Shown in pieces: positions 1-50,244 of a DNA stretch of 64,000 nucleotides. The DNA is from a candidate division BRC1 bacterium HGW-BRC1-1 (lineage in GTDB: Bacteria; Sumerlaeota; Sumerlaeia; Sumerlaeales; Sumerlaeaceae): assembly GCA_002842095.1 (NCBI GenBank), contig PHCB01000006.1:3814-67813 (forward strand). Reading direction: 5' to 3'. The notes under the pieces were generated by a model. It saw only the letters and a program-made list of their open reading frames with translations. It had not been told where the DNA came from and searched no databases. Position 1 is the first letter of the stretch; each line of letters starts with the position of its first letter. A program made the translations under genes and the position numbers.

Positions 1-762
1 CGCAGCCACGGTTTTCTGACGCGCCATCACCGTGAGCACCGCAAACATGAATCCGGCCACGGCCGACCCCGTTCCGCGCAACGGCAGCGGCGCGGGGAAA
101 AAATTGAACCGCAAACTACCCAGCGATGCAAACACCACCACCAGCGCGACGGAATTCAGCACCGGCTCTCCCGCCCCCAGCGTGCCGTACGCCACTGCAA
201 CACCGGCGACCAACAGCAACACGTTCACCGCTCCCTCCAAACCGTCCAGCAGTCGCGCCACCCCCGTGGCCGCCACCAGCCACAGCACCGTGAGCGGACC
301 CGACCACGCGCCCAGCGCGACATCGCCCTCGCCCCGCACACCCAACACACCAAACCGCGTGCCGGTTGCCATCACCAGAACCGCCGCCAGCGCCACAACG
401 ACCCACTCCACAATCCAACGCAACATTCGCGGTGGTTGACTACCCCCCGCAAACCGCCCCATCAACCCCACCCAGGCCGGCGTGGCCAGCAACAGCACCA
501 ACCCTCCGGTCACCCCCGCCAGAGCCAGCACCGCCCCGCCCGGCGTGTGAAACCGATCCGTCGCCGCCAACCATGGGCTGGCTGCCGCCACCAGCACCAA
601 CCCCGTCACCAATCCAGAAGCCAGCGGCAGAACCCCCTCCAGTCGCGAACCTCCCTCGCCCGCCGCCCGCGCGCCGCGAACACAGCGATATCCCACCGCC
701 ATGGCCACCACCCACACGACCAACGCCCCCGCCGTCAGACCCGCGATTCCCAATGCGTTCAT
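1..762 (-). CDS. Polyprenyl-phosphate sugar-1-phosphate transferase (MraY/WecA family) membrane protein, N-terminal 254 aa; continues beyond window start
   Basis: Minus-strand frame is open from ATG at 762 through position 1 with no stop, which is why it is absent from the ORF track. Multi-TM protein with LLDGLEGA (DGLDGL-like) followed by FNFFPA...GSAVAGFMFA (NFPPA..FMGD.GS-like) motifs in the order typical of WecA/MraY. Its ATG overlaps the GT2 stop in an ATGA configuration. Confidence 0.5.
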   Translation of the reverse strand, partial: MNALGIAGLTAGALVVWVVAMAVGYRCVRGARAAGEGGSRLEGVLPLASGLVTGLVLVAAASPWLAATDRFHTPGGAVLALAGVTGGLVLLLATPAWVGLMGRFAGGSQPPRMLRWIVEWVVVALAAVLVMATGTRFGVLGVRGEGDVALGAWSGPLTVLWLVAATGVARLLDGLEGAVNVLLLVAGVAVAYGTLGAGEPVLNSVALVVVFASLGSLRFNFFPAPLPLRGTGSAVAGFMFAVLTVMARQKTVAA

Positions 763-1691
763 GCGCGTTTCTCCGTTCCCAAAAGAGGCTTCAATGTGTT
801 CTGCGCCATCACCATCGCACACCGCGCCGCGATGCCCAGCAGCGTTGCGGTGTCCACCAGCACAATCCCACGGCTGTAGTGCTTGCGATAAAACCGCCAC
901 ATGCTGCGGTGGCGCTCATACGTCATGCGATAAGGAACCTTGCGCGTGCTGCGCCCGATGTGGTGGCGCACCTCCGCCTGCGGGAAATACACGATGCGCC
1001 AGCCCGCCTGCTTCATCCGGTAGCACCAGTCCACGTCCTCGCTGTACATAAAGAAACCTTCGTCGAGCAGCCCCACCTCATCCAGCGTTTTTCGCCGCGC
1101 CATGAGGCACGCGCCGCTCACCCAGTCCACATCCGCCGTCTCGTCGTGGTTCCAGTCGGTCATCAGGTACTCCGCCGAGTAACGATTGCGCGGAAACAGG
1201 CGCGTCATCAACGAGTACCGATGGAACAACGCCGTGCGGTAACTGGGAAACGACCGGCACGACAACTGCACGCTGCCGTCGGTGTTCAACAACCGCGCGC
1301 CCAGGGCCCCGATATCTGTGTGTGCATCCATCGTGTCGCGCATCTTTTCCAGCGCGTCGCCCACGATCTCCGTGTCGCTGTTCAGAATGAGCAGATAACG
1401 CCCCCGCGCCTCGCGGATGCCGCGGTTGTTCGCGTGCGCGAACCCCTCGTTGCGCGTTTGCTCGAGCAGCTTCACGGCTGGGAAATTCGCGCGGGTCATC
1501 GCCACGCTGTCGTCCGCCGATGCGTTGTCGACCAGAATGACCTCCAGCCACAACGCGCCAAGGCGTTCGCCCATCGACGCAAAACACGCGCGCAACAAAT
1601 CGCTCGTGTTGTAATTCGTCACGATGATGCTGATGTCGGGCGCGTCACCGGCCTTGCCGCCGGCAGATTCGCGCACCGCAGCGTCGCTCAT
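759..1691 (-). CDS. Family 2 glycosyltransferase
   Basis: 310-aa ORF. N-terminus IIVTNYNTSDLL...ILVDNASADDS...NEGFAHANNRGI and the DxD region LILNSDTE are typical of GT-A fold GT2. Stop overlaps the downstream start. Confidence 0.8.
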   Translation of the reverse strand: MSDAAVRESAGGKAGDAPDISIIVTNYNTSDLLRACFASMGERLGALWLEVILVDNASADDSVAMTRANFPAVKLLEQTRNEGFAHANNRGIREARGRYLLILNSDTEIVGDALEKMRDTMDAHTDIGALGARLLNTDGSVQLSCRSFPSYRTALFHRYSLMTRLFPRNRYSAEYLMTDWNHDETADVDWVSGACLMARRKTLDEVGLLDEGFFMYSEDVDWCYRMKQAGWRIVYFPQAEVRHHIGRSTRKVPYRMTYERHRSMWRFYRKHYSRGIVLVDTATLLGIAARCAMVMAQNTLKPLLGTEKRA

Positions 1692-2941
1692 CCTCGCCGC
1701 TCCACGGCACCCGCCTCGACGGTTTCGCGCACGGTCCGCTCGTAATCCGCGGCCACCTTTTCGAATGCGAAATGCTTTGTGGCATACTCACGCCCGCGCT
1801 CGCCCAGGGCGCGGCTCAGTTCCGGATCAGCCTTCAGTCGTGTGATAAACTCCGCCAGTTCCGCAGGGTTGCGGGTCTCGCTCACAAGCCCGGCCCTAGC
1901 ATCCTCGACGATCTCCTTGATCACGCCCTCGACGCCCGCCACCACCGGCCGCGCGCTCGACATGTACTCGTAAATTTTCGACGGCACCGTGATCCGTGTG
2001 ATGGTATCCTGCCGGTATGTGACGATGAGCGCATCGCTGGCGGCCAGCAGACCCGGCACATCCTCGCGCGGCTGGTACCCAATGATGCGCACGTTATCCA
2101 GTTTCCACTCGCGGATGCGATCCTCCATCATCGGCAGCGCAACACCCTTGCCCACAAACCAGAACAGCACGTTGGGGTCCGACTCCTTCACGATCCGCGC
2201 CGTTTCGAGGATGACCTCGAGGCCCATCAGCAGCCCGAAATTCCCGAGGAACGAAACCACGTATCGCCCCTCAAGACCGTGCTTCTGCCGGAGCGCGTCG
2301 CGGTCCACCCGCGACGAATCGTACAGCGCCGGCTCCACCCAGTCGGGCAGCAAAATCACCTTCTCACGCGGCACGCCCTTCGCCACCAGGTTTTCCGTGA
2401 AGCCCCGCGTAACCACGCCGATGCGTTTCGCGTGGTCGTAAATCTTTTTCTCGATCCAGAACGACGACTTCACCAACAGCGGATGATTCAACATCCCCAC
2501 GGCCACCGCGCAATCGGGCCAGATGTCGCACACGTCGAACATCATCGGCAGCCCTCGCACCTTCGACACCACCCACCCCGCGATGCCATCGGGCAGCGGG
2601 CTGATCGTGACCAGCGCATCAAACTTCCCGCGCACAAAAAGCGCCCGAAGCATGCCCGTAATCATGAACGATCCGTATGTGGCCATGCGCCGCAAGAAAT
2701 GGTCGGGCTTCGACGAACCATACGCCCAGGTGCGGATAATCCGCGCCCCGCCCATCATCTCCTCGCGCGGCTGCTTGCGCGACGACTCGCCATTGCGCAT
2801 CGTGGAGGGATGGCTCGGGATGCCCGTAACCACCGTCACCTCGTGGCCCTGCTTCACGAGGTATTCGACAATCTCCACCGCCCGCGTCGATGTGCCCACG
2901 GTCTCAGGATAATAATGCTGATGTAAAAAAAGAAGCCGCAT
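1688..2941 (-). CDS. Family 4 (GT-B) glycosyltransferase
   Basis: ORF-track frame extends to 3004; the likely start is internal, MRLLFLHQHYYPETVGTSTRAVEIVEYLVKQGHEVTVVT, a classic GT4 N-terminus. C-terminal E-x7-E-like region present. Overlaps the GT2 start by 4 nt (ATGA). Confidence 0.75.
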   Translation of the reverse strand: MRLLFLHQHYYPETVGTSTRAVEIVEYLVKQGHEVTVVTGIPSHPSTMRNGESSRKQPREEMMGGARIIRTWAYGSSKPDHFLRRMATYGSFMITGMLRALFVRGKFDALVTISPLPDGIAGWVVSKVRGLPMMFDVCDIWPDCAVAVGMLNHPLLVKSSFWIEKKIYDHAKRIGVVTRGFTENLVAKGVPREKVILLPDWVEPALYDSSRVDRDALRQKHGLEGRYVVSFLGNFGLLMGLEVILETARIVKESDPNVLFWFVGKGVALPMMEDRIREWKLDNVRIIGYQPREDVPGLLAASDALIVTYRQDTITRITVPSKIYEYMSSARPVVAGVEGVIKEIVEDARAGLVSETRNPAELAEFITRLKADPELSRALGERGREYATKHFAFEKVAADYERTVRETVEAGAVERRG

Positions 2942-3087
2942 GGCGCTCCCGACAGACAAAGGTTTGATACCCACCAGATGAATCGCCCCACATGACCGAG
3001 ACAACCCATTTCTTGCGGATTCCGCAGGAGAGCAGACATTCCTGTCGGCTGTTTTGTTTTTATCTCACCCCAGCGCAATTACGTGCG

Positions 3088-3229
3088 TTTCCTGGGAACG
3101 TCAATCTCCTGATTGGCGCTTTTTACGCTGTGGGGAGTATGCCGTTCCGGAGAGCAAAAAAACACTCTACCCAAAAAACCGGATATCCTGCGCAAGCGTA
3201 TTGCGTCTGCCAATCAGGAGATTGGCGTT
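3088..3229. repeat. Long imperfect inverted repeat (about 30–40-nt arms around a roughly 80-nt spacer) between the epimerase gene end and the GT operon start
   Basis: Left arm TTCCTGGGAACGTCAATCTCCTGATTGGCG (3088–3118); right arm reverse complement TTCCCCGGGAACGCCAATCTCCTGATTGGCA (3199–3229). Confidence 0.6.
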
Positions 3230-3272
3230 CCCGGGGAAGACCAGAACACCGATTGATGAAAGCAGAACGTCT

Positions 3273-3306
3273 GGCGGCGACCGGCGAGGGCGCCGGTCCC
3301 ACATTA
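3273..3306. repeat. REP-like hairpin element, family R1, copy 1 (GGCGGCGACCGGCG-AGGG-CGCCGGTCCCACATTA)
   Basis: 8-bp perfect stem GACCGGCG/CGCCGGTC with a 4-nt loop. Near-identical copies at 7111, 10219 and 42564. Confidence 0.7.
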
Positions 3307-3325
3307 ACAGCACGCTCTCCTGCAA

Positions 3326-4525
3326 TCAGCGCGGCAGGGCGAGCTCCTCGCTCAGCACATAGAACGCCCTCGGCACATGGAAGCAGCCCTTCCACTTGCC
3401 GCCCTTCAGCGATAGCAGCACCTCGCCTCGGCGGTTCAGATAACCGAACCATTCGCCGTGCTCCTTGTCTGCGAAATGCTCCCACGACCACGCGTGCAGC
3501 CGCTCGAACCACTCCCACGCCCGCGCGCGCACTTCCGGCCTCGCGCTCAGGCGCGACGTCTTCGCCAGCGCGATCAGCGCCTCCACGTGCACCCACCACA
3601 GTTTCTGGTCCCACTCCAGCTTCTCCGGCGGACGCCCCTTCGCATCCATGAAGTAATAGATCCCGCCGAACTCCTTGTCCCAGCTATAGTCGAGAATGTT
3701 GAACACCACATCCGCGCACTTCTCGATCAATGCCGCGTCGCCGTTGCGCTCCCCGATCGCCATCAGAAACCACATCCCCTCCAGCCCGTGGCCGGGGTTC
3801 AGCAGGCGCCCCTCGAAGGTATCCGGATGGCTGCCATCGGGCGCCACCGACTCATAAATCAGCCCGCTCTCCTTGTCGAGGAACCGCCCCATCACCTCGC
3901 CCACCGCCTCGTCCAGCCGCTGGCTCAGCACCTCCGGTCCGAGGATCCACTCCAGTTCCAGCGCCAGATTGCACAGGATCATCGGCAGCGTGTACCCCGC
4001 CATGGGGCGCGTCTCCGCAATGGCCTTCGTCCATGGCCCCTTGGGGTTGTCGCGCCGCCGCACAATCCCCTGCCACGCCGCCAGCGCCATCTCACGGGCA
4101 TCGTCCTCGCCCGTTGCCAGACCGTACTGGCTGAAAGCCATCGCCGCAAAGCAGTCCGAAAAAATGTTGTACGGATGCACCAGCGGCTTGCCCTCGCGCG
4201 TCAGCGAGAAATACCAGTCGCCGTTTTCCGCCCGACCGTGACGCCGCAAAAAGTCCGCCCCCTGCCGCGCCATCTCCAACCACTCGGGGCGCTTTTCCAG
4301 ACGGTTGTACAACATGGAAAACGTCCACACCTGCCGCGCCTGCAACCAGATGAACTTGTCCGTATCGTAAACCTCACCGTCGCGTTCGAGGCAGGTGAAG
4401 TACCCGCCGAACTCGCGATCCGGCGAATGCTGCATCCAGAACGGCACCACATTATCTAACAACGCCGCCCGATAATGTCCCGCCAGTTCCTTCGCACGCT
4501 CCGACACCTTGGACATATCCTGCAT
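3326..4525 (-). CDS. N-acylglucosamine 2-epimerase (AGE) family sugar epimerase
   Basis: 399-aa ORF, alpha/alpha-toroid-like, W-rich ([40 protein letters not shown]), as in AGE/cellobiose-2-epimerase family proteins. Confidence 0.65.
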
Positions 4526-4767
4526 GACGAAACCACCTCACAAAAATAATCAAACCGCAGCCCCAACACCACCCGCGCACTCCCCCACCCAAGCGCCAGA
4601 GCGTCAAGGGCGATGTGGCAAGCCACAGCGATAGAAAAAAAGTCCGTACCCTCACAACCATCAAATGTGCGACCGGCGCCCCCGCCGGTCGGCACCAGAC
4701 ACCACCATCACGCAACATTGTTTCTCCTCGATTATTACTAATCACCCATCCTATCTTCGCTCCCACT

Positions 4768-7062
4768 ATGGCCGACCCAACCGCGCCCCTCGATTTACCC
4801 GCCAGCCTCCTCGCCGCGGCCGACTGGACCGCGCTCGAAACCCTTTTGCTCGACCTCGACTTCCTTGAAGCAAAGGCCGTCGCCGGCCAGACTCGCGAGC
4901 TTCACGCGGACATGCTCGCTGCCGCCGAAGCACTCCCCGACGACCGTCCCGCGCAGCACATCCTGCGACTCCTCGCCGAGGCCGTCGCACGCCATATCGA
5001 TTTCATCCACGACAACCGCGAGCACTACCCACAGGCGCTATTCCAATGCCTGTGGAACCTCGCATGGTGGTACGACAACCCCGCCTCGGCGCCCTTCTAC
5101 GACGCGCCCCCCGACGGCTCACCGCCATGGCAGGCCCCTGATCATCCGCTCCAAACCTTACTGGAAAAATGGCACGCGCAACGCCAGCTTCGCGACCCCG
5201 GTTTCGTCTGGATCAAATCCCTCACACCTCCCGGCCTTCCCCTCGGCTCCTCGTTCGTCGATCGTCTTTCCGGTGCGGGCAAGGCACGTCTGGTTTGCTT
5301 CTCTCCCGATGGCGGGCTGCTCGCCTGCGCTTGCGGTTACAATACCGTGCAAGTGTGGGAACCCGCCACCCGTCGAAAAATCGTCGAGCACCAGTTCCAT
5401 CGCGAATCGCCAGTTTATCTGCGCTTCACCAACGACTCCCGCGCCCTGTGGGTCGTGCCCCATTCATTGCCTCCTCCAACCGAAAAAGTCACACCACCCG
5501 TGGTGAGCGTGAACCTCATGTTCGACTGGCAGACCGGCGAGCCACGCTACACGCTCGAAATTCCATTCAATCCGTATACCCACTTTCGGCCATCTCCGGA
5601 CGATACCCTCGTCGCCGTGTCAACGGGCGACGACCATTCCGTCGTCGAAATCGCCACAGGGCGCGAACTCTGGCGCAAGGCTTATAAGGGAGAGTATGCG
5701 AACCGAATCAGTTTTTCTCAGGATGGTTCCCTCCTCGCTGTCACACGAGGAAAAAAGATTAATATCCTTCAAGCCCGCACCCGCGAATTGCTCCGCACAC
5801 TCATCAACCCGGCAGGTCAAATAGCAGGGATTTTAGACACGCTGAGATTTTCACCCGACGGCCGATACGTCAGCAACGAGCTGATGCAATCCGTGGATTT
5901 CGATCCACTGCCCGGCATGCGCCACTCCGACTGGTCCTGGTCATGCCTCAGCAGCCCCGGCGCAATGCACTACGCGGTCGTTTGGTGGCGGACAGAGGAT
6001 GGGCAATTCCTTCACTCCGTTGATCAGGGAGAGTGGAATATGGCCGATGCGACATTTTCACCCGACGGACAATCCCTTGCCATCATTTCTCCATACGGGG
6101 CGGTCTCCATCCACGACACCGTAACCGGGGACCTCCGCAACACTTTCAACGACCAGTCTGGCCAGGCCCATGCCATCACATTTTCTCCCGATGGTTCATT
6201 GCTGGCCGTCGCTTCCAAAGTCGGAATCACACTTTGGAATACCGCGCTTCCACGGAAGGTTAGTTCGCGTATTGGCCACTCCATGCGCATCAAGGATTTT
6301 TCGATTTCCCGCGACGCCACCTGTGCCGCCACAGCCAGCGAAGACTGCTCCACGCTCCTTTGGGAAACATCCACTTGCCAGCCCCGCCTGAGCATCAGCA
6401 CCCCGGATTACCCACACAAAAAAGTGAGCCTCGCCCCCGACGCCGGCACGGTCGCCATCGCCTGCGACTTCGGCATAATCTCCATTTACGACACCGCGAC
6501 CAGCGAACGACTCGTCGCGTGGAGAGCCGTGGAAGACGATCCCGTCGTTCAATTGGTCCACTCACCCGACGGCGCGCTGCTGGCTACGAGCGGCATGTAT
6601 GATCACGACATATGCCTTTGGGACGCGCGCACGGGCGACTTGCGTATCCGTCTCACTAGCCACACCGATCACGTCGACTCGGTCCGCTTCACCGCCGACT
6701 CGTCGCATCTTGTCTCCACATCCTTCGACACCACCTGCGTGTTATGGAACGTGCGTACCGGCCGACAGGAGCGCGAGTTCCATCCTTTTGCAGATGCAGA
6801 TGCTTTCCTGCCGCCGCCGGGCGGGCCGGTGGCTACGCTCTTCTTCAACTACGACAGACCCGTGCGCTTCGCGCGTCGCGAAGACCAAGTCGTGATCGCC
6901 ACATATCCCGAACCCGTGATCGAGTTGAAACCCCACCCCGACGGGCGCCATTGGACCGGTGCCCAAGGCAATCACCTCATCCAACTGCGCCTCGAAGGCG
7001 ACGTATCCACCGCCCCCGGCTATAAGGTGGAAACGGAATCATGTTCGTGCTATTGCCAATAA
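4768..7062 (+). CDS. WD40-repeat protein with an approximately 180-aa N-terminal helical domain
   Basis: ORF-track frame starts at 4615; ATG at 4768 (MADPTAPLDL) is the plausible start. At least 10 WD-like repeats (FSPDG.LLA…, LWNT, LWDARTG, VLWNVRTG). The N-terminal region (LLDLDFLEAKAV…LWNLAWWYD) is not assigned to a known family. Confidence 0.7.
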   Translation: MADPTAPLDLPASLLAAADWTALETLLLDLDFLEAKAVAGQTRELHADMLAAAEALPDDRPAQHILRLLAEAVARHIDFIHDNREHYPQALFQCLWNLAWWYDNPASAPFYDAPPDGSPPWQAPDHPLQTLLEKWHAQRQLRDPGFVWIKSLTPPGLPLGSSFVDRLSGAGKARLVCFSPDGGLLACACGYNTVQVWEPATRRKIVEHQFHRESPVYLRFTNDSRALWVVPHSLPPPTEKVTPPVVSVNLMFDWQTGEPRYTLEIPFNPYTHFRPSPDDTLVAVSTGDDHSVVEIATGRELWRKAYKGEYANRISFSQDGSLLAVTRGKKINILQARTRELLRTLINPAGQIAGILDTLRFSPDGRYVSNELMQSVDFDPLPGMRHSDWSWSCLSSPGAMHYAVVWWRTEDGQFLHSVDQGEWNMADATFSPDGQSLAIISPYGAVSIHDTVTGDLRNTFNDQSGQAHAITFSPDGSLLAVASKVGITLWNTALPRKVSSRIGHSMRIKDFSISRDATCAATASEDCSTLLWETSTCQPRLSISTPDYPHKKVSLAPDAGTVAIACDFGIISIYDTATSERLVAWRAVEDDPVVQLVHSPDGALLATSGMYDHDICLWDARTGDLRIRLTSHTDHVDSVRFTADSSHLVSTSFDTTCVLWNVRTGRQEREFHPFADADAFLPPPGGPVATLFFNYDRPVRFARREDQVVIATYPEPVIELKPHPDGRHWTGAQGNHLIQLRLEGDVSTAPGYKVETESCSCYCQ

Positions 7063-7227: not shown

Positions 7228-9800
7228 TCACTTGCGGTTTTCCATCACATCCCTTGCTGCCCGCGCGCGGCCGAGGGCGTGTCCAATCCCCGAATCGTCC
7301 GGCCAGCGCTTCTCGCCCTCCTGCGCCACCCGCTCCGCCACGTCGGCGCGACCCAGCGCCATGCACGCCGCCGATGCATCCGACACCGTTTCGGCATCCA
7401 CGTCCTCACGGGCGACCTCGGCCACGAGCGTCTCCAGGCCGCCTGCGCCAAGGGCCGCATCCACCATGCGCTGCCTTGCCGCCACGCGCGGTTCCAACAC
7501 GGTCACCCCCGACTGCGTCCCCGCTCGCGTCAGCGTCTCATACAAGTTCTTCGCACCCTTCAAATCGCCTGATCGCCATAGCCACAGGTCCATTTCATAC
7601 GCATCCACCCTTACAAACTGTTGAAAGAATAACCCTGCCTGTTCCCCCAGTTGCTGCGCGTGCCTCGCGAAGCTCTCCACTCGCACCGCCCTCGCACGGA
7701 GCGTCAGCGATTCCAGTTCTTCCGCCAGGTCATCCTTGCCCGCCCGTCGCCACAACACTGCCAGATACCCCTCGAAAAACGGTGACAGTGGATGCGCCCG
7801 CAAGCACGCACGCACGGCCCGGCGCTCTCTACGCGGCTGGCTCATCACCCGCGCCACGTCAATCTTCTCCATTCGTGTTTTAGACGCCGTCTCCCCGGGT
7901 CGCGCCGCAAGTGGTGCGGCTTCGTCCCACAGTTCCCTGCGAAGTGGCGTGTCGGGCATCCCCATCACCGCCTTTGCCCATAACTTGGCGCTGAAACCGC
8001 GAAGCGCGTCGAGCGCCGGCAACCGTTCCGTGTCCGTTGTCGCCGCGTCCAGCGCCCACAGCCACGGCACCGGATTAGCAGCCCACTCCCGCCCGGCCGC
8101 TTCAAGATCTTCTACCGATGGCCGCTTGCCCGAGTTCATCAGGGGCGAAATGTGCGAGAACGCTATACCCGCCGCATCATCTTGCACGGCATGCGCAAGC
8201 ATCCATCCATTTGCCCCTGCAATCCCAACCAGCAGCAGACCCGCTGCAATCCATACCCGACGCCCGCGCAGCCACCAAGCCCGCGTTCGCCACCCCCCCA
8301 GCGCCAGCACCACCACGACCGCGCCGCATGCCGCCAGCGCCGCTGCTGCACCCCCACGCCCTGCTGACAGCAACGCACCCACACTGTCGTATTGCATCGG
8401 CAACGTTGTCAAATACCCCGGAAATTCACGCCAGAAATCCCAGCCCAGCAGCGCCACTTCCGTGGCGAAAAACGGGCGCATGACCTGTCGTTCGAACCCC
8501 ACCGCCAGCACAACATTTGTTGCCACCACCAGTGCGCTCCACATGGGAAGCAACCCCAGCACACGCCGCGGCAGCCGCGCATAAACAGCAGCAAGACCCA
8601 CAGCGAAAAACGGCAGCAGGCTCGCAAAGCGCCGCATCCCGAACGACGAACCCGCCCACCAGTCGCCCGCGCACGCGTTCACGTAAACCGCCACGGCCAC
8701 CGCCGCAACCATCCCCGCGTGCGCCGACCACAACCGCCGCGGTATCACCAATCCAGCCAGCAGCCCCACCGCTCCTACCGCCAGAATCGGATGCCAATAG
8801 AACGCCCCATTCCACCCGGAGAATAACAGGTTCCACACCTCCGGCTGGCCCCAGCGCATGAAGCTGTCTCCCTGGGGAATCGTCAGCCAGTGCCCCAAAT
8901 ACGCCCGCCAATACGAAGCTTGCAGCGAAAACACGGCAGCAAACGCCACCCCCGCCGAAACCACTCCCGCCACCAGTCTCGTCGCGTTATAGCCTGCCTT
9001 GGGCTTGTTTTCTGATATCGATTCCCCCCCCCCCCGTGAATCCCAGACGCACGCCGCGCCATCTCTACCACCCAAAACCCCGCAGGCACCAACCCGAGCA
9101 CCACATCCTGCCAGCGCACAATCGTCACCAAGCCAAGCGCCGCACCCACCGCAACATAACTGCCCACCCCGTGAAATTTGCGCAATCGCATCGACAGCCA
9201 CAATAGCAGCGCCGTGGCAAACGCTGAGGAGGCATGGGACATCGTGGGATACCCGAACAGATACCCCAACAGCGTGCTGCCCAGACCCGCACCCAACGCG
9301 GCGTGCAGCGCCACTCGCTCGCCAAACCGCATTCGACACGCCTCGTACATGAGCAGCAACGCGAGCAGTCCATAAAACGCTGACCCCAGCGACACCGCCC
9401 ACCGGTACGGCGCCGAATAACGATCACCCGCCCAAGCCGGCGCACCCCACGGCAGATGCTCCGACACCAGGGCTGTCCCTCTCACCACGGCGAAAAAAGG
9501 CGACCACAATGCCGACGTACCCAACGCGAAATAATTACTCACCTGCCCCTGGTTGTTCGGCGTGCTCAGTCTGTCGCGCAGCGTCTCCACCGAATTGTTG
9601 CTCAGTGCCACATCGTTGGCCAACACCAGATCGCCGTCGAAGGCGGGTGACGAAAGATAAGAAAAATAAAACATATCATCGTAACCCACGCCCGACCACG
9701 GCGAAAACAACATCAAGAACAGCAATCCGAAAACCGCACCCAACACCCTGCGGTGCCGTCGCGCCCTCACGCTACGCCTCAAAATGCGCACCGCCCGCAT
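7228..9800 (-). pseudogene. Large multi-TM membrane protein, putative GT-C fold (PMT/ArnT-like) glycosyltransferase with a C-terminal soluble domain; frameshifted at a C12/G12 homopolymer
   Basis: Two overlapping minus-strand ORFs (8883..9800 and 7228..9402) in different frames. The membrane-protein-like sequence continues from the first frame (…ARRASGIHGGGG) into the second (GGGESISENKPKAGYNATRLVAGVV…) exactly at the homopolymer at 9024–9035. The N-terminal 120 aa of the 7228..9402 ORF looks non-coding. Confidence 0.55.
9024..9035. repeat. C12 (minus strand G12) homopolymeric tract at the frameshift site
   Basis: Counted directly in the sequence. 13 or 10 residues would restore a single roughly 855-aa reading frame. 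Confidence 0.8.
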
Positions 9801-11618: not shown

Positions 11619-11789
11619 GGTTGCTGCTCTCCTGCTGTTACCTGAATGTCGGCGGCCGGCCCCACCCGGGGTCACGTCCGCCGATGATACCAGAAACGAA
11701 TCGGGCGACAGCACCCGGGGTTTTCGGCCCGGGGCGGTCGCCCGTCGGTTCACAACTTTGTTAGCCGGCAAAGCGGCCCGTGCTGTGCG

Positions 11790-13205
11790 TTAACGCCAGC
11801 GGGAGCCCGAGGAGCGCTTGAGCGCGAAGCCCTCGTAGTGGCGCATCAGCAACTGGCTTTCGATCTGTCGCAAGGTGTCGAGGAACACGCCCACCACAAT
11901 GATGAGGCCCGTTCCACCCACGAACGCCGCCGCCGCGTAAGGCATTCCATAACTCGTTTCCAGAATCAGCGGCAGCACCGCGATGGCGACGAGAAAGATG
12001 GCGCCCACGGTGGTGATACGCGTAAGGACGAAATCGATGTATTCGCTGGTGGGCTTGCCGGGGCGCTTGCCCGGGATGAAAGCCCCGCTCTTCTTCAGGT
12101 TGTTCGACACGTCATCGGGGTTAAACGATATTGCGGTGTAGAAGTAGCAGAAGAAGCCCGTGAAGAGTGCAAACATCACGTGGTGCATGTTGAAGCTCTT
12201 AAGGATGAGGAAGATGCCCTCGCTCTCCAGACCGGCCCAGCGTTGGAAAAACGCATACAGGTTGTAGGGAGAGTTGCCCGAGAAGAGATTGCCGATGAAA
12301 CCGCCCTGCGGATTACCCGCCGAGACATAACCGGCAATGAAGCTGGGGAAGCTGAGAATGGCCGAGGCAAAAATGACGGGGATAACACCTGCGGTGTTGA
12401 TCTTCAACGGCAGGTAATTCGTGCCGCCCGACATAACCCGTCGCCCCACAACGCGTTTGGCTTGTTGCATGGGGATGCGCCGGGTGCCCTCTTGAATGAG
12501 GATGATGGAGACCGTGGAGACGACGAACAGCACTGCCACGATGGGCAGCCAGATCCACTCGAGGCCGCCCTTGTTCATCTGATAAATCAGCGAGAAGACG
12601 TCTTGGGGATACTGCGCGAGAATACCGAAGGCGATGATCAGCGAGATACCGTTGCCGATCCCCTTCTCGGTGATCCGCTCGCCCAGCCACATGAGAAACG
12701 CCGTGCCCGTGGTCATGGCCATCATGGTTGTGAAGAGGAAAATGCCCGGATACTTACTGCCGTAAATGGACAACCCCTGCGAGAGTAGCACGGTGCCGAG
12801 GCCAAAGCCCTGAAACGCCGCCAGACCGATGGTGCCCATGCGGGTCCAACGGTTGATCTTGCGCTGCCCGAGGGCCCCCTCCTGCTGGATCTTCTGCAGG
12901 CGCGGGAACACGACGGTCATTAGCTGGAGGATAATGCTCATGCTGATGTAAGGCATGATTCCCAGAGCGAAAACGCTCATGTTGCGGAAGGCGAAACCAC
13001 TGAACAGGTCAACAACGGCGAACAAACCGCCGCCGGCACTGCGTTGGTTGTCGATGAACTCGGCCAGCTTGCCGGGATCGATAAACGGCGTGGGGACGTG
13101 AGCGCCCACACGGTACACACCCATTAACAGCAGGGTGTAAAGGACCTTCCGGCGCAGGTCGGGAATCTTCCAGATGTTCTTCAGCGCACTGACGCTCTTA
13201 ATCAC
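11790..13205 (-). CDS. secY: Preprotein translocase subunit SecY
   Basis: 471 aa, 10-TM, MIKSVSALKNIWKIPDLRRKVLYTLLLMGVYRVGAHVPTPFID. Confidence 0.95.
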   Translation of the reverse strand: MIKSVSALKNIWKIPDLRRKVLYTLLLMGVYRVGAHVPTPFIDPGKLAEFIDNQRSAGGGLFAVVDLFSGFAFRNMSVFALGIMPYISMSIILQLMTVVFPRLQKIQQEGALGQRKINRWTRMGTIGLAAFQGFGLGTVLLSQGLSIYGSKYPGIFLFTTMMAMTTGTAFLMWLGERITEKGIGNGISLIIAFGILAQYPQDVFSLIYQMNKGGLEWIWLPIVAVLFVVSTVSIILIQEGTRRIPMQQAKRVVGRRVMSGGTNYLPLKINTAGVIPVIFASAILSFPSFIAGYVSAGNPQGGFIGNLFSGNSPYNLYAFFQRWAGLESEGIFLILKSFNMHHVMFALFTGFFCYFYTAISFNPDDVSNNLKKSGAFIPGKRPGKPTSEYIDFVLTRITTVGAIFLVAIAVLPLILETSYGMPYAAAAFVGGTGLIIVVGVFLDTLRQIESQLLMRHYEGFALKRSSGSRWR

Positions 13206-17381: not shown

Positions 17382-17696
17382 TCAGATCACCGTGCCGCAC
17401 TTCTTACAAACCCGCGTCTTGCGACCCTCGGCATCCGTGTTCGTGGAAAACCGAACACCGCGCTTGCACTTGTCGCAAACCAACATCAGGTTAGAGACGT
17501 GAATCGGTGCCTCTTTCTCGATGATGCCACCGGGCTGACCCTGTCCCTTGGCCCGCGTGTGGCGCTTGACCATGTTAACATGTTCAACCACCGCCCGGCT
17601 CTTGGACGGAATCACAAACAAAACCTTGGACGTGGTGCCGCGATTCTTGCCCGCGATCACAACCACTTTATCATTTTTCTTAATTCTCAGCGACAT
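17382..17696 (-). CDS. rplX: 50S ribosomal protein L24
   Basis: MSLRIKKNDKVVVIAGKNRGTTSKV (KOW motif). Confidence 0.9.
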   Translation of the reverse strand: MSLRIKKNDKVVVIAGKNRGTTSKVLFVIPSKSRAVVEHVNMVKRHTRAKGQGQPGGIIEKEAPIHVSNLMLVCDKCKRGVRFSTNTDAEGRKTRVCKKCGTVI

Positions 17697-42766: not shown

Positions 42767-44245
42767 TTAGTAGTTAAGCCACTCGTTCACGCCGGCCGTG
42801 ACGGCCATGGTGACGGTCGCAGGGGCCGGAGTGGTGTAGCTGTTGGCACCGGCGGGGGAATAAACACGCAGGTACTCCGCCGAGGAGTTGGACCCGTAGA
42901 AGTTTCCGGCAGCGTCAAAGGCGGCGTCGCGGGACGTGGTGCCGGTATAAGTGGCGCCAGCTTCATAGGCCACTGTGACTGTCGGGAACGTGCCGATCTC
43001 CAGCACCTTCATTCCAGCGGACACAGAATACACCAGTTTGGTGCCGTCGGGGCTGATATCCATGCCGCCCTGGGTGGTGGCCGCAAGGCCAACTCCGCCG
43101 GGTAGATTCGTGAAGGAGTTGAAGTCCACCGTCTGAGCAGGGGAGGTTGTGACGTGGATAAGAGCCGGAACCGCAGCGCCATCAGTGCTTCGATTCTGGC
43201 TGATCCACCAGCCGTTGTTTCCCGGCGCGATGGTGCTGTTCATGTTCTGCTGCAGGTTTCCAGCGGCGAAATCGTCGTAGGTGACGGTGGGGGCGGTATT
43301 GTAACCACTCGTCGCCGTGCCGATGGCGTAGCTGTAAAGGCTGCCTTTGCCCTCACCCAGGGTTGCGGCGGTGAGATCAAGGTCTTCATCGAGGGTGGTC
43401 ATCACACGACCACTTCCCGTGCCGGCCACATAAAGTCCACCAATGCTGCCGTGGAGGCCTGTACGCAAGCCGCCTGCGCCACGCACGATCGTCGAATCGA
43501 ACAGTTCCGAGAAGGCATTCGCAGGATTAGCCGCATCCATGATCCAGACGCCCGAGTGGGAATCTGACCAATCGCAGATGAACGGCGCGCCGTCAGGCGC
43601 TACACGAACACGGAAGGGGCTGGAATTGCCCACCCATGCGACGCCACCATTATAGGCGGTGTCCACCTGTCCGGTGATGTCCTGGAAGTCGTTCGACAAA
43701 ATGTAAACGCCATCCGTCATTGCAAGGCGCCCGTCGGCCGTGTTCACCGGCGTGGCGGCAACGCTGCCGGCATTGTTGACCACGTAAATCCGTCCGAAGG
43801 TCGCGTTGGCAGGGTTCTTGTCCACGGCCACACCATAAGGCGTGTAGAAGTTGAGGAACTTGTTGCCAGCGGGCAAGGGCCCCTCATCGCTGATCTTGGT
43901 GACAGCGCCATAGCCACTGGCGGCGGCGGTCACTTCGAAGGAATAGCTGCCGGCGGCCACATTGGCGGAGGCGTCATTCTTGCCGTCCCAAGCGACGGTG
44001 TTCAGACCCTTCAACTGCGACCCTGCGGCGATGGTGCGCACCACGGTGGTGGCGGGCAGCGGGCCCTTCACCTTCACGCTCACGCCGGTATCGGCGTTCT
44101 CGTTCAGGCGATAGCTGATGTTGTAGTTGTTACCACCCGTATTGGTGGCGGAAAGGTGCGCGGCGTAAACGTTTGCGTGACTGCTGGCGGCACTGCAAAG
44201 CAGCCCTGCCACAGCACACGAAATTGCGAAATGTTTGATGCTCAT
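42767..44245 (-). CDS. Secreted protein with an N-terminal FlgD-Ig-like domain followed by beta-propeller-like repeats
   Basis: Signal peptide MSIKHFAISCAVAGLLCSAASSHA. Ig-like domain SYRLNENADTGVSVKVKGPLPATTVVRTIAAGSQLKGLNTVAWDGKNDASANVAAGSYSFEVTA matches the FlgD Ig-like pattern (…G.H.F.WDG.D..G…G.Y.F.V.A). Confidence 0.5.
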   Translation of the reverse strand: MSIKHFAISCAVAGLLCSAASSHANVYAAHLSATNTGGNNYNISYRLNENADTGVSVKVKGPLPATTVVRTIAAGSQLKGLNTVAWDGKNDASANVAAGSYSFEVTAAASGYGAVTKISDEGPLPAGNKFLNFYTPYGVAVDKNPANATFGRIYVVNNAGSVAATPVNTADGRLAMTDGVYILSNDFQDITGQVDTAYNGGVAWVGNSSPFRVRVAPDGAPFICDWSDSHSGVWIMDAANPANAFSELFDSTIVRGAGGLRTGLHGSIGGLYVAGTGSGRVMTTLDEDLDLTAATLGEGKGSLYSYAIGTATSGYNTAPTVTYDDFAAGNLQQNMNSTIAPGNNGWWISQNRSTDGAAVPALIHVTTSPAQTVDFNSFTNLPGGVGLAATTQGGMDISPDGTKLVYSVSAGMKVLEIGTFPTVTVAYEAGATYTGTTSRDAAFDAAGNFYGSNSSAEYLRVYSPAGANSYTTPAPATVTMAVTAGVNEWLNY

Positions 44246-44658
44246 AAAAGCCCTCCAAGCTATAAGATGCAGTTCGATTGGATGCAAATCCCTTTGTGGG
44301 GAATCCTGACGATACCCTAACGTATCCGTTTGAAGAGAATGAAAAAGCCACCCGTCAACTTACGTCACGGCATTGCCAGCGTTTATCCAATGGCAAATTA
44401 TTGAACCATCAAGCAGGGCTGAGTCAACCTGCTTTTGGTCGGGGATTGCATATTTTTCTATTTTCGCGACGGGACGCGTCATTCTGACGGCTTCCTCAAA
44501 CGTGAGTCTGGGGCTACGCGCGGCAATTAGATTGATGGGAACCATGCAAAACGTCCTATGGGGATGCTGTACGGGGCGATAATGCCAGAAGCGGCGGTGG
44601 AGACTTCAGCAGTCCCCTGTCCTCTACAAGTCGACGCCTCGCCCCACTTTTTCTTCAA

Positions 44659-44895: not shown

Positions 44896-46344
44896 ATGAA
44901 AAGATTACTTTTTGCAGCCTTGCTTGCGGGCGGACTTGTATCCGCGGCGCAGGCAGTCCCGTACGCGGGACAGATTCGCGTGAGCAGCTTGAGCGTGGCC
45001 CAGGGTGTCGGGCTAACGATCAACTACCAACTTAATGAAACCGCCGACAGTGTAGGTATCGAAATTCGCAATCTGTCGAACGTCGTTGTGGCGACTTTCA
45101 CCGGAACGGCCGCCCAAGGCGCCAATAGTGTGGCATGGAACGGCACTGCGGATAACGCTGCCGGTGCTGCCGTAACGGCCGGCAACTACCGCGTCCGCAT
45201 CACGGCCAACAAGAACGTTCCGCTGGGCTGGACGGAATTCGCGTCCAACCGCTCGGTGGGTAATTATGGTACGGCAACCATCCTGAACACGATATTCGAT
45301 GGCTATTCGGGCCGCTCCTTCATCCTCTCGCGCAACACAGACAGCCCGGCGTTTGGCTACGTGCTCGGTATCACCTCGTATCTCACGACTACCAACCATG
45401 CCGCAGCAGTCGTGTTTGATTCAGACCTCAGCATCTCCGCCGGCGACGACGGCTTCGCCTCGCGCAAACTGAAGGGCTTCGGCGACGGCGTGGCCATCAC
45501 GAACAACACCGCTTTCTGGGATGCCGTGATTGATCCCGATGATCCCACGCGCGTGTGGGCCACCGGTCAGGGTGGAGTTGGCGCTGGAGCCAATCAGACA
45601 GGACTCATGACCGCCAGCCCGATTTTGTCGGACAACCTTGTGGACGCGGATCCATTCGACCGTGCGGCTGTAATCCTGCCCCGTGGGTTGGAAGTAAAGA
45701 CTATCAGTGGCACCAAATACGCCTTCCTCACGGGTGGCACTGGTATCATCAACCGCGTGGTGATTGATGGCACCAACAACGTGCCGGACGTGGCAGCGGT
45801 GGATATTCTCGGTGTATCGGCAGTGTACTCGCGCGACGTTCGCTTCGATGCAGCTGGCAACCTCTACTACACCACGCGCGACGTCGCCGGTGGTAACATT
45901 TACCGCTGGGATGCAGCACTCGTGGCTTCCGCCGTGGCCGACAGCCTGACGCCTGCCAACGCCTCGTGGACCATCACGGGCACCGCTACTGCTGCCAACA
46001 TGATGAACGCTGCCATCGCTCCCAACGGCGACGTTTATACGCTGGCGGTTACGGGCACCGAGCGCGGTATCTATCTCGTTGGCAATATCTCCGCGCCGAC
46101 GCTGACCAAAACTCTGGCCCTGGCTGACCGCGTGGTCGATTACGTGGCCATCCCCTGGCAGCCCAGCACCGCCGGTGGACGCATTGCCGTGGATATCGCG
46201 GGCAACGTGTATGCCACGGATAACTCCGTGGAGCAGGTGCGTGCCTTCAGCCCCGGTGGCAACACCTCCCAGATTGTGGTTGCTCCCTCCAGCGAAACCT
46301 TCGCCGTGACGGCCGCCAACGTATCGGGTTGGGGCCTGTACTGA
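44896..46344 (+). CDS. Secreted protein with an N-terminal FlgD-Ig-like domain plus beta-propeller-like repeats (divergent paralog of 42767..44245)
   Basis: Signal peptide MKRLLFAALLAGGLVSAAQA; INYQLNETADSVGIEIRNLSNVVVATFTGTAAQGANSVAWNGTADNAAGAAVTAGNYRVRITA; shares …RFDAAGNLYYT… style repeats with the paralog. Confidence 0.5.
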   Translation: MKRLLFAALLAGGLVSAAQAVPYAGQIRVSSLSVAQGVGLTINYQLNETADSVGIEIRNLSNVVVATFTGTAAQGANSVAWNGTADNAAGAAVTAGNYRVRITANKNVPLGWTEFASNRSVGNYGTATILNTIFDGYSGRSFILSRNTDSPAFGYVLGITSYLTTTNHAAAVVFDSDLSISAGDDGFASRKLKGFGDGVAITNNTAFWDAVIDPDDPTRVWATGQGGVGAGANQTGLMTASPILSDNLVDADPFDRAAVILPRGLEVKTISGTKYAFLTGGTGIINRVVIDGTNNVPDVAAVDILGVSAVYSRDVRFDAAGNLYYTTRDVAGGNIYRWDAALVASAVADSLTPANASWTITGTATAANMMNAAIAPNGDVYTLAVTGTERGIYLVGNISAPTLTKTLALADRVVDYVAIPWQPSTAGGRIAVDIAGNVYATDNSVEQVRAFSPGGNTSQIVVAPSSETFAVTAANVSGWGLY

Positions 46345-46637: not shown

Positions 46638-47307
46638 TTATTGCTTCGCGGCGTCTTCCACACCCGTAAGGGATATTTGCGCTTTACGCATGAGACCACT
46701 GTACTCCTGCGCCGTGCGCGCCTGAGTCGCCAGTTCCACGTAATGGGTGAACTCGTCGAGATTATCGAGAACCACGCTTTTGGGGGAGTCGTCCTGGGAG
46801 GTGTCGGCCTCGATGCGTCCACGCAGTTGACCGGCCTGGTCTAACATTACGGCGGCTTTGTCGGCGGGCAGTTTCACGTCGTTGATAAGATCGAGATCAC
46901 GCAGGGTGGTGCGGATTTGGTCGGCGCCCGTGCGGGTGATGACAGCCGCCGACTTTTCGGTTTCAGCGGGTGCTGTGCGGATCGATGCCACGGCCGATGT
47001 GGGGATATCGGTGATGACCAGGGGCGGGGGTGTGGGGATGTCACCGGGGGGGGCGGCGGGGGGGGGGGGGGGTGCCGACGGGGGTGTCGGAGGGTGGCGG
47101 GAGGGTTGGGACGACGGGGGTGGCTACGATGTCGAGGGTTTCGGTGCCGGTGGCTTGGAGTTGTCCGGTGGCGTCGCGGGCGGGTTGTTCAACCGCGGGC
47201 GGGTTGGCGGCATCTTTGGGGGCGGAAGAACCGCATCCGGACAGGAGCAGGGCGCTGGTGCCACAGGCAAGAAGCCCAAGGGCGGTGCGGCGGAGATAAA
47301 GATTCAT
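46638..47307 (-). pseudogene. Lipoprotein with a Pro-rich linker and C-terminal domain, split into two ORFs by a frameshift at a G15/C15 homopolymer
   Basis: ORF 47041..47307 is MNLYLRRTALGLLACGTSALLLSGC (lipobox) …PPPPRRPPR*. ORF 46638..46991 (other frame) remains open and Pro-rich back through the homopolymer at 47058–47072, then gives a folded-looking C-terminal domain. Confidence 0.5.
47058..47072. repeat. G15 homopolymer (preceded by G8 at 47046–47053) inside the lipoprotein coding region
   Basis: Counted directly in the sequence. Confidence 0.8.
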
Positions 47308-47493: not shown

Positions 47494-49590
47494 TCAGGGT
47501 TGGTGGCTCTTGGCGTATTCGAGCGACACGCGCTCGACGGCGGCTTCGTTGATGACGAGGAACATGGGCATGCCGGGCGGCGGTGTGGCGGCCTGCAGGC
47601 TGTTGTCCCACAGGTAATTACGATTGGGGGGAGAGTAGTAGGTGTGCCCGCTGTCATTACGCCAGGGCTTGATGCCAACAAGGCTCTCGTAGAGGCAGAT
47701 GAGCGAGCCGTTAAAAGTGTGCTTCTTGCCGCTCCAGTTTTCGAGGTAGCGCATGACGTTGTGAGCACCACCGCTCTGGGTGATGCGTTTGCCGGCGGCG
47801 TTAAATTTCGAGCCGGTCTGGCCCATCACTATAATGAGATTGGTGATCAAACCATCGCTACCGGAGGGAGGCACGGCGGTGGGGTTTTGCGAAACAGTAA
47901 CCCTGCCTCCGGTGATCGGATCGTTCGCGGTTCCGCTTCCTTCGCGGGTGTAGCCGGTGGGAAGCGACGAAGTAAGAGGGAAAGATTTGCTGGTATTGAG
48001 AGAGGAGCGTATTTCGTATATATCGCCCACCTTAACGGACACGGGGTAATCGAGCTTCAGTTCCTGGGACGTGACAGTCACCGCATCGGCCGCGAAGACA
48101 GCCGCGACTTTGCTGGTGCTGTTAATATTGCCGACTGTATAAAGGGGCCGGTCGGTTGCGAAAGTGAAGCCCGACTGCAGGTTGCGGGGTACGCTTGTGG
48201 CGTTCTTCACGCGGATGGCGGGCATGAAATCGTCGCGGCCGTATCCGCCCCAGTTCTGGGGCGAAGTCCAGTTGTCACCGGAAGCCGGAGTGGTGCTGGC
48301 ATAAAGCACACCATTTTGAAAGGTGAGATTCCGGGCGACGATTTTAGACATGTCGATGTCGATGGTGCGCACAACTGTTTCCTGCTGGCCATCATAGAAC
48401 TCACCGATAGTCCAAATGGGGTTGTTCCCATTGGCGTCGGTGTTGGAGACGACGTTGCCATTGGAATCCACTATTTTAATGGTGTCGGGATTGCCCGGGT
48501 TACCGGTAATCTTGAGGTCGGCCATGCTTTCAAACTTGAGTTCTTGCACCGCCTGGCTGTCGCCGGGTTGCAGACGGGCGATCATGTCAGAAGCCTCGCT
48601 GCCCACGGGAAGGGGTGGGTTGATGGTGCGCGTGGCGTGGGCTTGATCGCGCACAATGCCGCCCCAGCGGGAAATGGCGTCATTCTGCCAGTTGAGATCG
48701 AGACCATCGAGATATTTGTTATTGTTGGTGTCGAGGCTACTGCCAGTCCCGACATACATGTTCAACCAGTTACCGGCGGCGTTCTTGAACTTCACGTCAC
48801 CCAGGTTTGTGTATGATTCAAGGGGATAAATATATCCAGAGTCCTTGCTGGTTGCATTGATTTTCGTATTTGTGAAGTCGTTATAGGCCCGAATGCGACC
48901 CACGGACGAGACTCGACCCCAGAAGTTCAAGCCGCTTGAGGCACCCAGCCACAGTGTGCCGTTGCAGTGAACCGGTCCACGAACGTCCATCAGAGGACCC
49001 GGGTGAAGCTCCATGTCGGGGTTGTAGAAAATAGCGAACTGATAAAGGGGAACGTAGTCGAGGGTCACGATCTTGCGGGCGGCGATACCTTGCACGCCCA
49101 GCTTGTCGGCATTGGCAGAGTTCTCGCGGACAGCGGCGACAAGCTCATATTCAAGGCGCCCCGTGGAGTAGCCGTCCCAGCGATCGGCGGGATCGTCGAT
49201 GACGCGGAACTGGAGATCGTTGGGCCCGAGACTACGCACATAAACCGCGTCTTTGTTCCCGTTCTTTACCGGTTCGTACCCATAGAACGAAGCCGGGCGC
49301 ATGGCATTAACGATGCCATTAATCTGGTCCATGCGTCCGCCGGTCTGGGGCGGACGGTTGTTCATGACAAACTGAATATCCGCCGCCATGCACGAAAGCA
49401 CGGCGTGGGCTCCCGCGAGTGAGTTTTCCACCACACGGGTGCGGTAGAGGTTGGTCATCTGAGTGGTGGTCTGGTGGATCATCAACGCCACACCGGCACT
49501 GAGAACCAGAACGAACACGCATGCCGAAAGCAGGGACGAACCCCTGCGACGACGGGAACCGGGTTTGGTGCGAAGCGATAATTTTTTCAT
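47494..49590 (-). CDS. Large (698-aa) pilus/T2SS-associated protein with an N-terminal pilin-like TM anchor (GspK/PilX/PilY-like minor pilin or tip protein)
   Basis: MKKLSLRTKPGSRRRRGSSLLSACVFVLVLSAGVALM N-terminus without Glu+5; large Asn/Gly/Thr-rich beta domain; last gene of an operon with two prepilins. Confidence 0.35.
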   Translation of the reverse strand: MKKLSLRTKPGSRRRRGSSLLSACVFVLVLSAGVALMIHQTTTQMTNLYRTRVVENSLAGAHAVLSCMAADIQFVMNNRPPQTGGRMDQINGIVNAMRPASFYGYEPVKNGNKDAVYVRSLGPNDLQFRVIDDPADRWDGYSTGRLEYELVAAVRENSANADKLGVQGIAARKIVTLDYVPLYQFAIFYNPDMELHPGPLMDVRGPVHCNGTLWLGASSGLNFWGRVSSVGRIRAYNDFTNTKINATSKDSGYIYPLESYTNLGDVKFKNAAGNWLNMYVGTGSSLDTNNNKYLDGLDLNWQNDAISRWGGIVRDQAHATRTINPPLPVGSEASDMIARLQPGDSQAVQELKFESMADLKITGNPGNPDTIKIVDSNGNVVSNTDANGNNPIWTIGEFYDGQQETVVRTIDIDMSKIVARNLTFQNGVLYASTTPASGDNWTSPQNWGGYGRDDFMPAIRVKNATSVPRNLQSGFTFATDRPLYTVGNINSTSKVAAVFAADAVTVTSQELKLDYPVSVKVGDIYEIRSSLNTSKSFPLTSSLPTGYTREGSGTANDPITGGRVTVSQNPTAVPPSGSDGLITNLIIVMGQTGSKFNAAGKRITQSGGAHNVMRYLENWSGKKHTFNGSLICLYESLVGIKPWRNDSGHTYYSPPNRNYLWDNSLQAATPPPGMPMFLVINEAAVERVSLEYAKSHQP

Positions 49591-49641: not shown

Positions 49642-50244
49642 TCAAATAGCGCCGGGTACGAAACTAACATTGATGACAAAAGCCTGATAGCCGGGACCTG
49701 TCTCCAGATCGTCCGTTTTACGGACGGCCGCATTGCGCGAAGTATTGCGGTCGCCGACGCGAACAATCAAATTTGCGAAGGTTCGGTCGGCGGTGTCGTC
49801 CTGCTGAAACACGGGCAGGGTCGCTCCACCGGAGGTGACCTGGGAGCAAAGCGACAACCTGACGCGGGCCCCGGTGTTGGTATCAGCGGTGACACGTTCG
49901 AGAATCTGATTATCGCCGATGGTGTTAAGGTTTCCGTCTCCGTTGGCGAAAACGTATTGTCTAACGCTGTTATCGGGGCGAATGAACTGCAGCATGGTGC
50001 CGCTGTTGAGCACACCCACCGATTGCGCTTCGGCAGCTTCGAATTCGAGCGTTTGCACGAATCGGCGGGCGCTCTCCTCCATGCGGGTGCGCGTGGTGAG
50101 GCTCTTGGCGGCGCGGGCGTAAATGACCATGGTGCTGGCCATGGCAATACCCGCCATGGCGAAGATGGACAGCGCCACGATCATCTCTGTGAGGGTTACG
50201 CCGCGAGTGCGCAAGCGGGTGAATGGCTTAGAGGCGGTTATCAT
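49642..50244 (-). CDS. Prepilin-type (type IV pilin / T2SS pseudopilin-like) protein
   Basis: Class III signal: …TRG|VTLTEMIVALSIFAMAGIA with Glu at +5. Confidence 0.65.
   Translation of the reverse strand: MITASKPFTRLRTRGVTLTEMIVALSIFAMAGIAMASTMVIYARAAKSLTTRTRMEESARRFVQTLEFEAAEAQSVGVLNSGTMLQFIRPDNSVRQYVFANGDGNLNTIGDNQILERVTADTNTGARVRLSLCSQVTSGGATLPVFQQDDTADRTFANLIVRVGDRNTSRNAAVRKTDDLETGPGYQAFVINVSFVPGAI

Follow-up and report, generated by a model that had tools for sequence, protein, structure and literature searches.

A G-run as a probable ON/OFF frameshift tract in a GT-C-fold membrane glycosyltransferase gene of a deep-subsurface Sumerlaeota bacterium

The ON/OFF switching of genes by frameshifts at an intragenic homopolymer is a known mechanism, with the classic homopolymer contingency loci being those of Campylobacter, Neisseria and Helicobacter and of the non-pathogen Bifidobacterium, and repeat-driven phase variation has so far been worked out almost wholly in host-associated pathogens and commensals. 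In a single-colony culture of Bifidobacterium breve, error-corrected sequencing gave 37% G11, 59% G12 and 3% G10 at one pilus-gene tract, whereas synthetic G11/C11 controls were about 94-97% correct (PMC9187656), and because of this mix set against the accurate controls, a run of G10-G12 can be regarded as being by itself a site of frequent slippage. Here, we analyze a G-run of this length in a 64-kb stretch of DNA (hereafter the window) from the metagenome-assembled genome (MAG) 'candidate division BRC1 bacterium HGW-BRC1-1', a Sumerlaeota genome of 3.77 Mb in 34 contigs from 160-m groundwater of the Horonobe Underground Research Laboratory (PMC8092238). The run lies inside a gene whose product is a GT-C-fold membrane glycosyltransferase with a TPR-like C-terminal domain, and we consider it probable that the run is truly hypermutable and acts as an ON/OFF frameshift tract, by which the glycosyltransferase undergoes phase variation of the simple sequence repeat (SSR) type. 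What is new is the setting, i.e., a free-living, uncultivated Sumerlaeota bacterium of the deep subsurface, and the enzyme class, i.e., a GT-C protein with a TPR-like domain, as well as the fact that the ON and OFF alleles can be read from public metagenome assemblies.

At positions 9024..9035 the plus strand of the window has exactly 12 C, and the coding minus strand accordingly G12. It was the original prediction, made from the sequence alone, that the frame of the membrane protein switches at this 12-nt homopolymer, and the meaningful frames indeed change there. The native N-terminal frame ends with '...ARRASGIHGGGG' ('...ASGIHGGGG') at the tract and is followed by an out-of-frame tail, and the other frame, the open reading frame (ORF) 7228..9402 (-) that overlaps the ORF 8883..9800 (-), resumes past the tract with '(E)SISENKPKAGYNATRLVAGV...' and stays open to the stop at 7228. 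The 256 native residues of the N-terminal ORF at G12, to which the protein P0022 is identical, comprise the first transmembrane helix (TM1), the first loop with the GYDD motif and about 6 helices, and the remainder of the gene carries the conserved loop 'MRWGQPE..LFSGWNGAFYWHP', further transmembrane helices and the TPR-like domain, with invariant alignment columns here. When the tract is edited, G13 gives a protein of 857 aa, G10 one of 856 aa, G12 one of 305 aa and G11 one of 270 aa, in good agreement with the earlier claim that adding one nucleotide or removing two would fuse the frames into about 855 aa. The full-length protein would contain the junction-crossing peptide 'GIHGGGESISENK' or 'GIHGGGGESISENK'. 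Outside the tract there is no stop or frameshift in the ~856 codons of the gene, so that the repeat number toggles an otherwise intact ORF, which is in frame at G10/G13 and out of frame at G11/G12. It is noted that the annotation of the MAG gives two adjacent 'hypothetical proteins', CVU37_04395 (287 aa) and CVU37_04390 (543 aa, with the start at the internal Met315), which are 100% identical to the gene.

A run of this length is far beyond chance. In the window, with 59% GC, there are just two homopolymers longer than 8 nt, the C12 at 9024 and a G15 at 47058, and the counts of shorter runs (96 of 5 nt, 21 of 6, 3 of 7 and 2 of 8) drop about 4-fold per extra base. Overlapping G10/C10 matches number 9, compared to a mean of 0.46 in dinucleotide-preserving shuffles, with none of the 100 shuffles reaching 9. 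The G12 thus has the hypermutable length of an SSR and lies inside a coding region. The possibility that the run is a by-product of poly-glycine coding is rejected on codon usage, because GGG makes up 16% of the glycine codons in the genes of the window and the other poly-glycine stretches are encoded by mixed codons.

The same gene, evidently in the same population, was located in other public assemblies via exact-protein look-ups, and the tract length was taken as the assembly consensus call in the six assemblies that read through the tract. The calls are G12 in three assemblies (the NCBI MAG, i.e., this window; ENA ERZ27239239, contigs L004/L016; ENA ERZ27239240, L018), G11 in two (ENA ERZ27239244, L001/L017; ENA ERZ27239242, L002/L020) and G10 in one (JGI 3300038334, L003/L015), with G12 and G11 being out of frame and G10 being in frame. 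The G10 allele was called by JGI as an 838-aa protein (P0018) that reads '...GIHGGGESIS...' and is otherwise identical in protein sequence. In flanks of 4.8-19 kb the read-through contigs agree with the window at all other bases, with the exceptions of scaffold N-runs, an internal deletion of ~91 nt in a JGI scaffold and one contig-end single-nucleotide polymorphism (SNP). Moreover, all of the 22 other homopolymers of 6-7 nt that are covered by the alternative assemblies are invariant, and every other homopolymer in the 19-kb JGI contig with G10 agrees with the window. Thus, at the assembly level, the tract is polymorphic in length among otherwise identical genomes, which supports the slipped-strand phase variation put forward in the original prediction to the extent that we regard it as the likely explanation. 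The three differing calls, which are mostly out of frame, fit a population with no one dominant length.

Two further approaches gave no additional read-through. A scan of the JGI metagenome collection with a 20-nt flank of the tract gave one unrelated chance match (L025) and nothing else, and when the tract was approached from the side of the neighboring WD40 gene, the contigs ended at window positions 7952-8952. Inside the glycosyltransferase gene, at 7952..7967, the ends of three ENA contigs (L004 and L048 of ERZ27239239 and L047 of ERZ27239243, i.e., two samples) lie no more than 15 nt apart, with no repeat or unusual sequence at this site.

The length differences can alternatively be supposed to arise from sequencing or assembly, with the true tract having one fixed length (e.g., G10 or G13, with the gene intact) and the different calls being produced by stutter in the polymerase chain reaction (PCR), phasing errors and assembler choices. 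Nine samples, collected in 2013 and 2014 from three boreholes, make up the Horonobe data set (PRJNA321556, with public reads), with TruSeq Nano libraries sequenced on HiSeq2000 (2x150) and assembled sample by sample with IDBA-UD (PMC5520028). Several points favor this explanation and weigh against a truly variable tract. The heterogeneity is one of assembly consensus calls rather than of raw reads, and common read sets may lie behind some of the assemblies of ENA, JGI and NCBI, so that the truly independent observations would be fewer than six. The libraries are PCR-based, which on the HiSeq2000 is a source of G-run stutter, and trouble with Illumina reads through G-tracts is documented (PMC9187656). 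Contigs end within ~72 nt of the tract in ERZ27239240, JGI 3300029821 and JGI 3300038336, and the contig of a fourth assembly (L005) begins ~295 nt downstream of it. Illumina sequencing demonstrably failed at the G15 tract 38 kb away, which is clearly mis-sequenced. Furthermore, the sole ON call, G10, comes from a JGI scaffold set that has other artefacts, namely N-gaps and internal deletions of 68-91 nt.

It is noted that the JGI deletions, which relative to the window lie at 17463..17552 (L003), 4382..4449 (L005) and 11758..11838 (L019), fall inside essential or conserved genes (rplX, the GlcNAc 2-epimerase gene and the end of secY), and that the N-runs occur in L003 and L009. The ENA contigs and the MAG have neither those deletions nor the Ns, which have the look of artefacts introduced by that pipeline in assembly or scaffolding, and are different in kind from the variation of the tract. 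A poor overall assembly of the MAG was considered and rejected, the other assemblies matching it at all other bases except for the contig-end SNP and the JGI artefacts; the broken frames found in the MAG are at the two long tracts only, with no systematic frameshift scan having been made.

If the true length were fixed and stutter affected a minority of the reads, it would be expected that one consensus call is obtained everywhere, because the consensus follows the majority of the reads. This is inconsistent with the three lengths seen. In addition, G11 and G12 were each obtained twice among ENA contigs that share the MEGAHIT-style prefix k141_, and the length difference is thus probably not an effect of the pipeline. 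The tract is also shorter than the range of >14 bp in which spurious Illumina indels are described as being concentrated (PMC8808543), and the 22 shorter runs are invariant. Finally, an artefact at an intact gene would predict an in-frame length to dominate, whereas only one of the six calls is in frame. We therefore consider an artefact unlikely as the whole explanation.

The protein itself is consistent with the label given in the original prediction, a GT-C-like membrane glycosyltransferase, as it has a multi-helix membrane domain of the GT-C architecture. A conserved acidic residue is present in the extracytoplasmic loop that comes first after TM1, in the motif 'GYDD' at residues 39-42, with Asp41 being kept in all 8 sequences of alignment A1 that span the N-terminus, including the distant P0008 ('GSDP'), and Asp41 may have a catalytic role. 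The match to Pfam PMT_2 is below the cutoff (19.7 bits versus 26.1, E 1e-3) and that to the NCBIfam LA_3751/3752 putative glycosyltransferase is far below it (17.4 bits versus 200), the remote homologues P0008, P0009, P0011 and P0012 have a precomputed match to PF13231, and a profile search of PDB sequences gave no GT-C match.

The tract falls in a lineage-specific loop insertion of ~17 residues, which occurs in none of the homologues in alignment A1. In the predicted model, residues 254-270 have a confidence score (pLDDT) below 50 and form a loop between the helices 230-252 and 273-302. A simple hydropathy and positive-inside count gave no reliable topology; the K/R-rich flanks of the loop suggest a cytoplasmic site, of which we make no claim. 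The original prediction proposed a comparison with orthologues for an uninterrupted frame, and the homologues are in fact single-frame, uninterrupted genes, and they align colinearly along 91-96% of the protein. At the position of the loop, the DNA of P0002, which is the closest homologue, lacks any run, and 13 more distant loci, amounting to ~135 kb, contain no homopolymer of >=10 nt.

These comparisons bear on the explanation by recoding, in which the DNA would be fixed out of frame and the full-length protein would be made via slippage of RNA polymerase or via ribosomal frameshifting. Long homopolymers can promote transcriptional slippage, mainly at A/T runs, and some leaky expression of an OFF allele is conceivable. 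By contrast, the length of the DNA itself varies here, and the slippery motif and frame change conserved in orthologues that would be expected of recoding are not seen, the homologues being single-frame with no run. A conserved recoding site is rejected because the run is absent from all of the relatives compared; neither a run nor a change of frame occurs at this site in any homologue, and there is thus no conserved recoding signal. We regard recoding as a very improbable account of the locus.

Another explanation is that the gene is a decaying pseudogene, inactivated at an unstable tract and no longer under selection, so that the length differences are real and neutral and there is no adaptive switch. 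This would be consistent with the out-of-frame lengths in five of the six assemblies and with the deposited annotation, which already has two hypothetical proteins. In addition, a paralogue on another contig of the same MAG (CVU37_01495, P0005, 808 aa, 45% identity), which lacks the tract-bearing insertion, could render the gene dispensable. However, both halves of the gene are otherwise intact over the ~856 codons, and an in-frame allele with an otherwise identical protein (P0018) persists in the population. The position of the tract also argues against decay, as it lies in a tolerant loop insertion where both ON lengths just encode GGG or GGGG. We thus consider decay rather improbable, and the occurrence of a second tract in the same lineage, discussed below, points in the same direction.

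The mechanism of phase variation that we propose is as follows. During replication, slipped-strand mispairing would add G's to the tract or remove them. At a length of 10 or 13 the 856/857-aa protein would be in frame, corresponding to the ON state, and at a length of 11 or 12 translation would end after 270 or 305 residues, corresponding to the OFF state, with the truncation falling before the latter half of the GT-C membrane core and before the TPR-like domain. The Horonobe population would then be a mix of ON and OFF alleles, with the dominant length varying by sample, and an OFF allele would have been captured in this MAG. The outcome would be that one envelope glycan modification is present or absent in a stochastic and reversible manner. 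Slippage in vivo would thus be the source of the variation, the OFF protein would have lost its function and, given that the truncated protein would lack the latter half of the GT-C core, it would be expected that ON and OFF cells differ in a surface structure. Any selective benefit may consist in escape from phage or other surface-targeting pressure, by analogy with Campylobacter and Vibrio (PMC6625227, PMC3441752).

The other features of the window are collected in Table 1. The second long tract, the G15, breaks a lipoprotein gene, in which it is part of a Pro-rich linker; with 15 nt the translation stops after 88 aa, and with 14 or 17 nt it gives 222/223 aa. The uninterrupted lipoprotein homologues P0024 (228 aa, 64% identity, 100% coverage) and P0025 have 'GMGPAPTPVVPP' at the position of the tract, with no run. 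P0024 belongs to a related Sumerlaeota-like organism of wastewater, in which the genes of the locus are in the same order, and P0002 was recovered from the same sequencing run as that organism. Because the relatives have no runs, both tracts are lineage-specific gains, and both are in envelope genes. That a second envelope gene gained a long tract in the same lineage, with the related species having neither, is typical of contingency loci and speaks against a decaying pseudogene.

Table 1. Coordinates of the features discussed (positions in the window)
Feature	Position	Strand	Remarks
Homopolymeric tract	9024..9035	-	In frame at 10, 13, 16 (n = 1 mod 3); out of frame at 11, 12
Whole glycosyltransferase gene	7228..9800	-	GT-C-fold membrane glycosyltransferase with TPR-like domain of helical repeats at the C-terminus; in-frame length 856/857 aa
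N-terminal ORF at G12	8883..9800	-	305 aa = 256 native residues + 49 of out-of-frame tail
Gene remainder downstream of tract	7228..9023	-	Other frame at G12
Lineage-specific loop insertion bearing the tract	8980..9050	-	~17 residues within '...SGIHGGGGESISENKPKAGYNAT...'; basis alignment A1
Second long tract	47058..47072		G15 on +, C15 on coding (-) strand; part of Pro-rich linker
Lipoprotein gene	46638..47307	-	Lipobox LLSGC; broken by G15 tract
Pilin-like gene	47494..49590		Upstream of lipoprotein gene
Pilin-like gene	49642..50244		Upstream of lipoprotein gene; N-terminal methylation motif
Pilin-like gene	50244..51074		Upstream of lipoprotein gene
GT2	759..1691	-	Pfam E 1e-22
GT4	1688..3004	-	Pfam E 3.5e-23
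GlcNAc 2-epimerase	3326..4525	-	Pfam E 9.6e-77
WD40 beta-propeller protein	4615..7062	+	815 aa (764 aa from called start); convergent to glycosyltransferase gene

Nine contigs from eight assemblies carry the gene neighboring the G15, and eight of them stop 17-40 nt short of the tract or turn garbled, the ninth ending about 310 nt upstream of it. Because the contigs break or garble there, the length of the G15 is untrustworthy, and we take it both as a candidate second contingency locus and as a warning on Illumina data at long G-runs. A G8 at 47046..47053 adjoins the tract, and the plus strand of 47020..47125 is very G-rich, with many runs of G3-G15 (GGGGCGGGGG..GGGG..G8..G15..GGGGG..GGG..GGG..GGG..GGG..GGGGG); this segment is potentially quadruplex-forming, which might account for the failure of the Illumina assembly. 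No record was returned when the 117-aa ORF that lies downstream of the G15 and the paralogue P0005 were looked up as exact proteins. Adjoining the pilin-like operon are two large secreted-looking proteins with FlgD Ig-like domains, at 42767..44287 (-) and 44896..46344 (+), and the place of the FlgD proteins is taken in the related species by a protein of 951 aa (L040/L041) that has a Wzy_C (O-antigen ligase-like) domain. As a glycosylation context of the glycosyltransferase gene, the GT2, GT4 and epimerase genes (759..4525) are on the same strand as this gene, with the WD40 gene of the opposite strand lying between.

Based on the two tracts, it is possible, though we hold it tentatively, that there is a small 'phasome', in which long G/C tracts were recently acquired by at least two envelope genes of the lineage, those of the glycosyltransferase and the lipoprotein, which are both tract-free in the related species, and in which the ON/OFF frequencies vary by borehole, depth or year. 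If this is true, it would suggest that the organism hedges its bets against phage or other pressures directed at the surface, in an environment to which temporal and genomic stability has been ascribed.

A literature search that included groundwater, MAG and free-living cases found no SSR phase variation reported for deep-subsurface or candidate-phylum bacteria, and the Sumerlaeota genome paper (PMC8092238) makes no mention of repeat-driven phase variation. Because annotations split the genes, as with CVU37_04390 and CVU37_04395, and assemblies break at the tracts, contingency loci would be systematically hidden in metagenome data. If the variation holds at the read level, the Horonobe series would be a natural record of the ON/OFF allele frequencies of a surface-glycan gene across boreholes and years, and it would make it possible to ask directly if bet-hedging in the deep biosphere is driven by pressure from phage or predation.

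Finally, we compare the locus with known systems. In the gtrABC system of Salmonella and phage P22, the phase-variable GtrC is of the GT-C type and modifies a surface glycan, as is proposed here, but the control is epigenetic, through Dam/OxyR at the promoter, and not by repeat slippage. In the O1-antigen genes of Vibrio cholerae, homopolymer frameshifts likewise occur in surface-polysaccharide genes, with phage as the selective agent, as may also be the case here; in that system (PMC3441752) the tracts are poly-A and control the phage receptor, and the selection by phage is experimental there whereas it is speculative here. The poly-G tracts of the Neisseria lgt/pgl genes (PMC5953494; also named in PMC9187656) are similar in that intragenic G-tracts switch glycosylation enzymes, giving glycan microheterogeneity, but they belong to a host-restricted pathogen/commensal with a well-characterized phasome, and the enzymes differ in fold and substrate.

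The Campylobacter jejuni 'phasome' (PhasomeIt, PMC6321876) has in common with this locus the intragenic G/C homopolymers of ~8-13 nt, the ON/OFF switching by frameshift, the envelope glycan genes as targets, the presence of several tracts per genome and the variation of lengths between otherwise identical genomes. The group differs in being AT-rich, host-associated and cultivable, with switching rates and phenotypes measured, whereas here we have a free-living groundwater bacterium of 59% GC, studied through metagenome assemblies; the Campylobacter enzymes are mostly soluble or peripheral with the GT-A/GT-B folds, in contrast to the GT-C membrane fold here. The sortase-pilus tract of B. breve (PMC9187656) differs in that error-corrected sequencing and strains engineered to be in frame were used there to verify the lengths, in that the targets are pili and in that the organism is a gut commensal. 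It is similar in that B. breve is a GC-rich non-pathogen, in whose reference genome the first gene is divided by a G10-G12 tract into the ORFs 'a' and 'b', in that alleles of G11 and G12 are found side by side in a population and in that the same worries about Illumina and PCR errors at G-tracts apply; moreover, its pilus genes and the second tract here, the G15, both belong to pilus-related operons.
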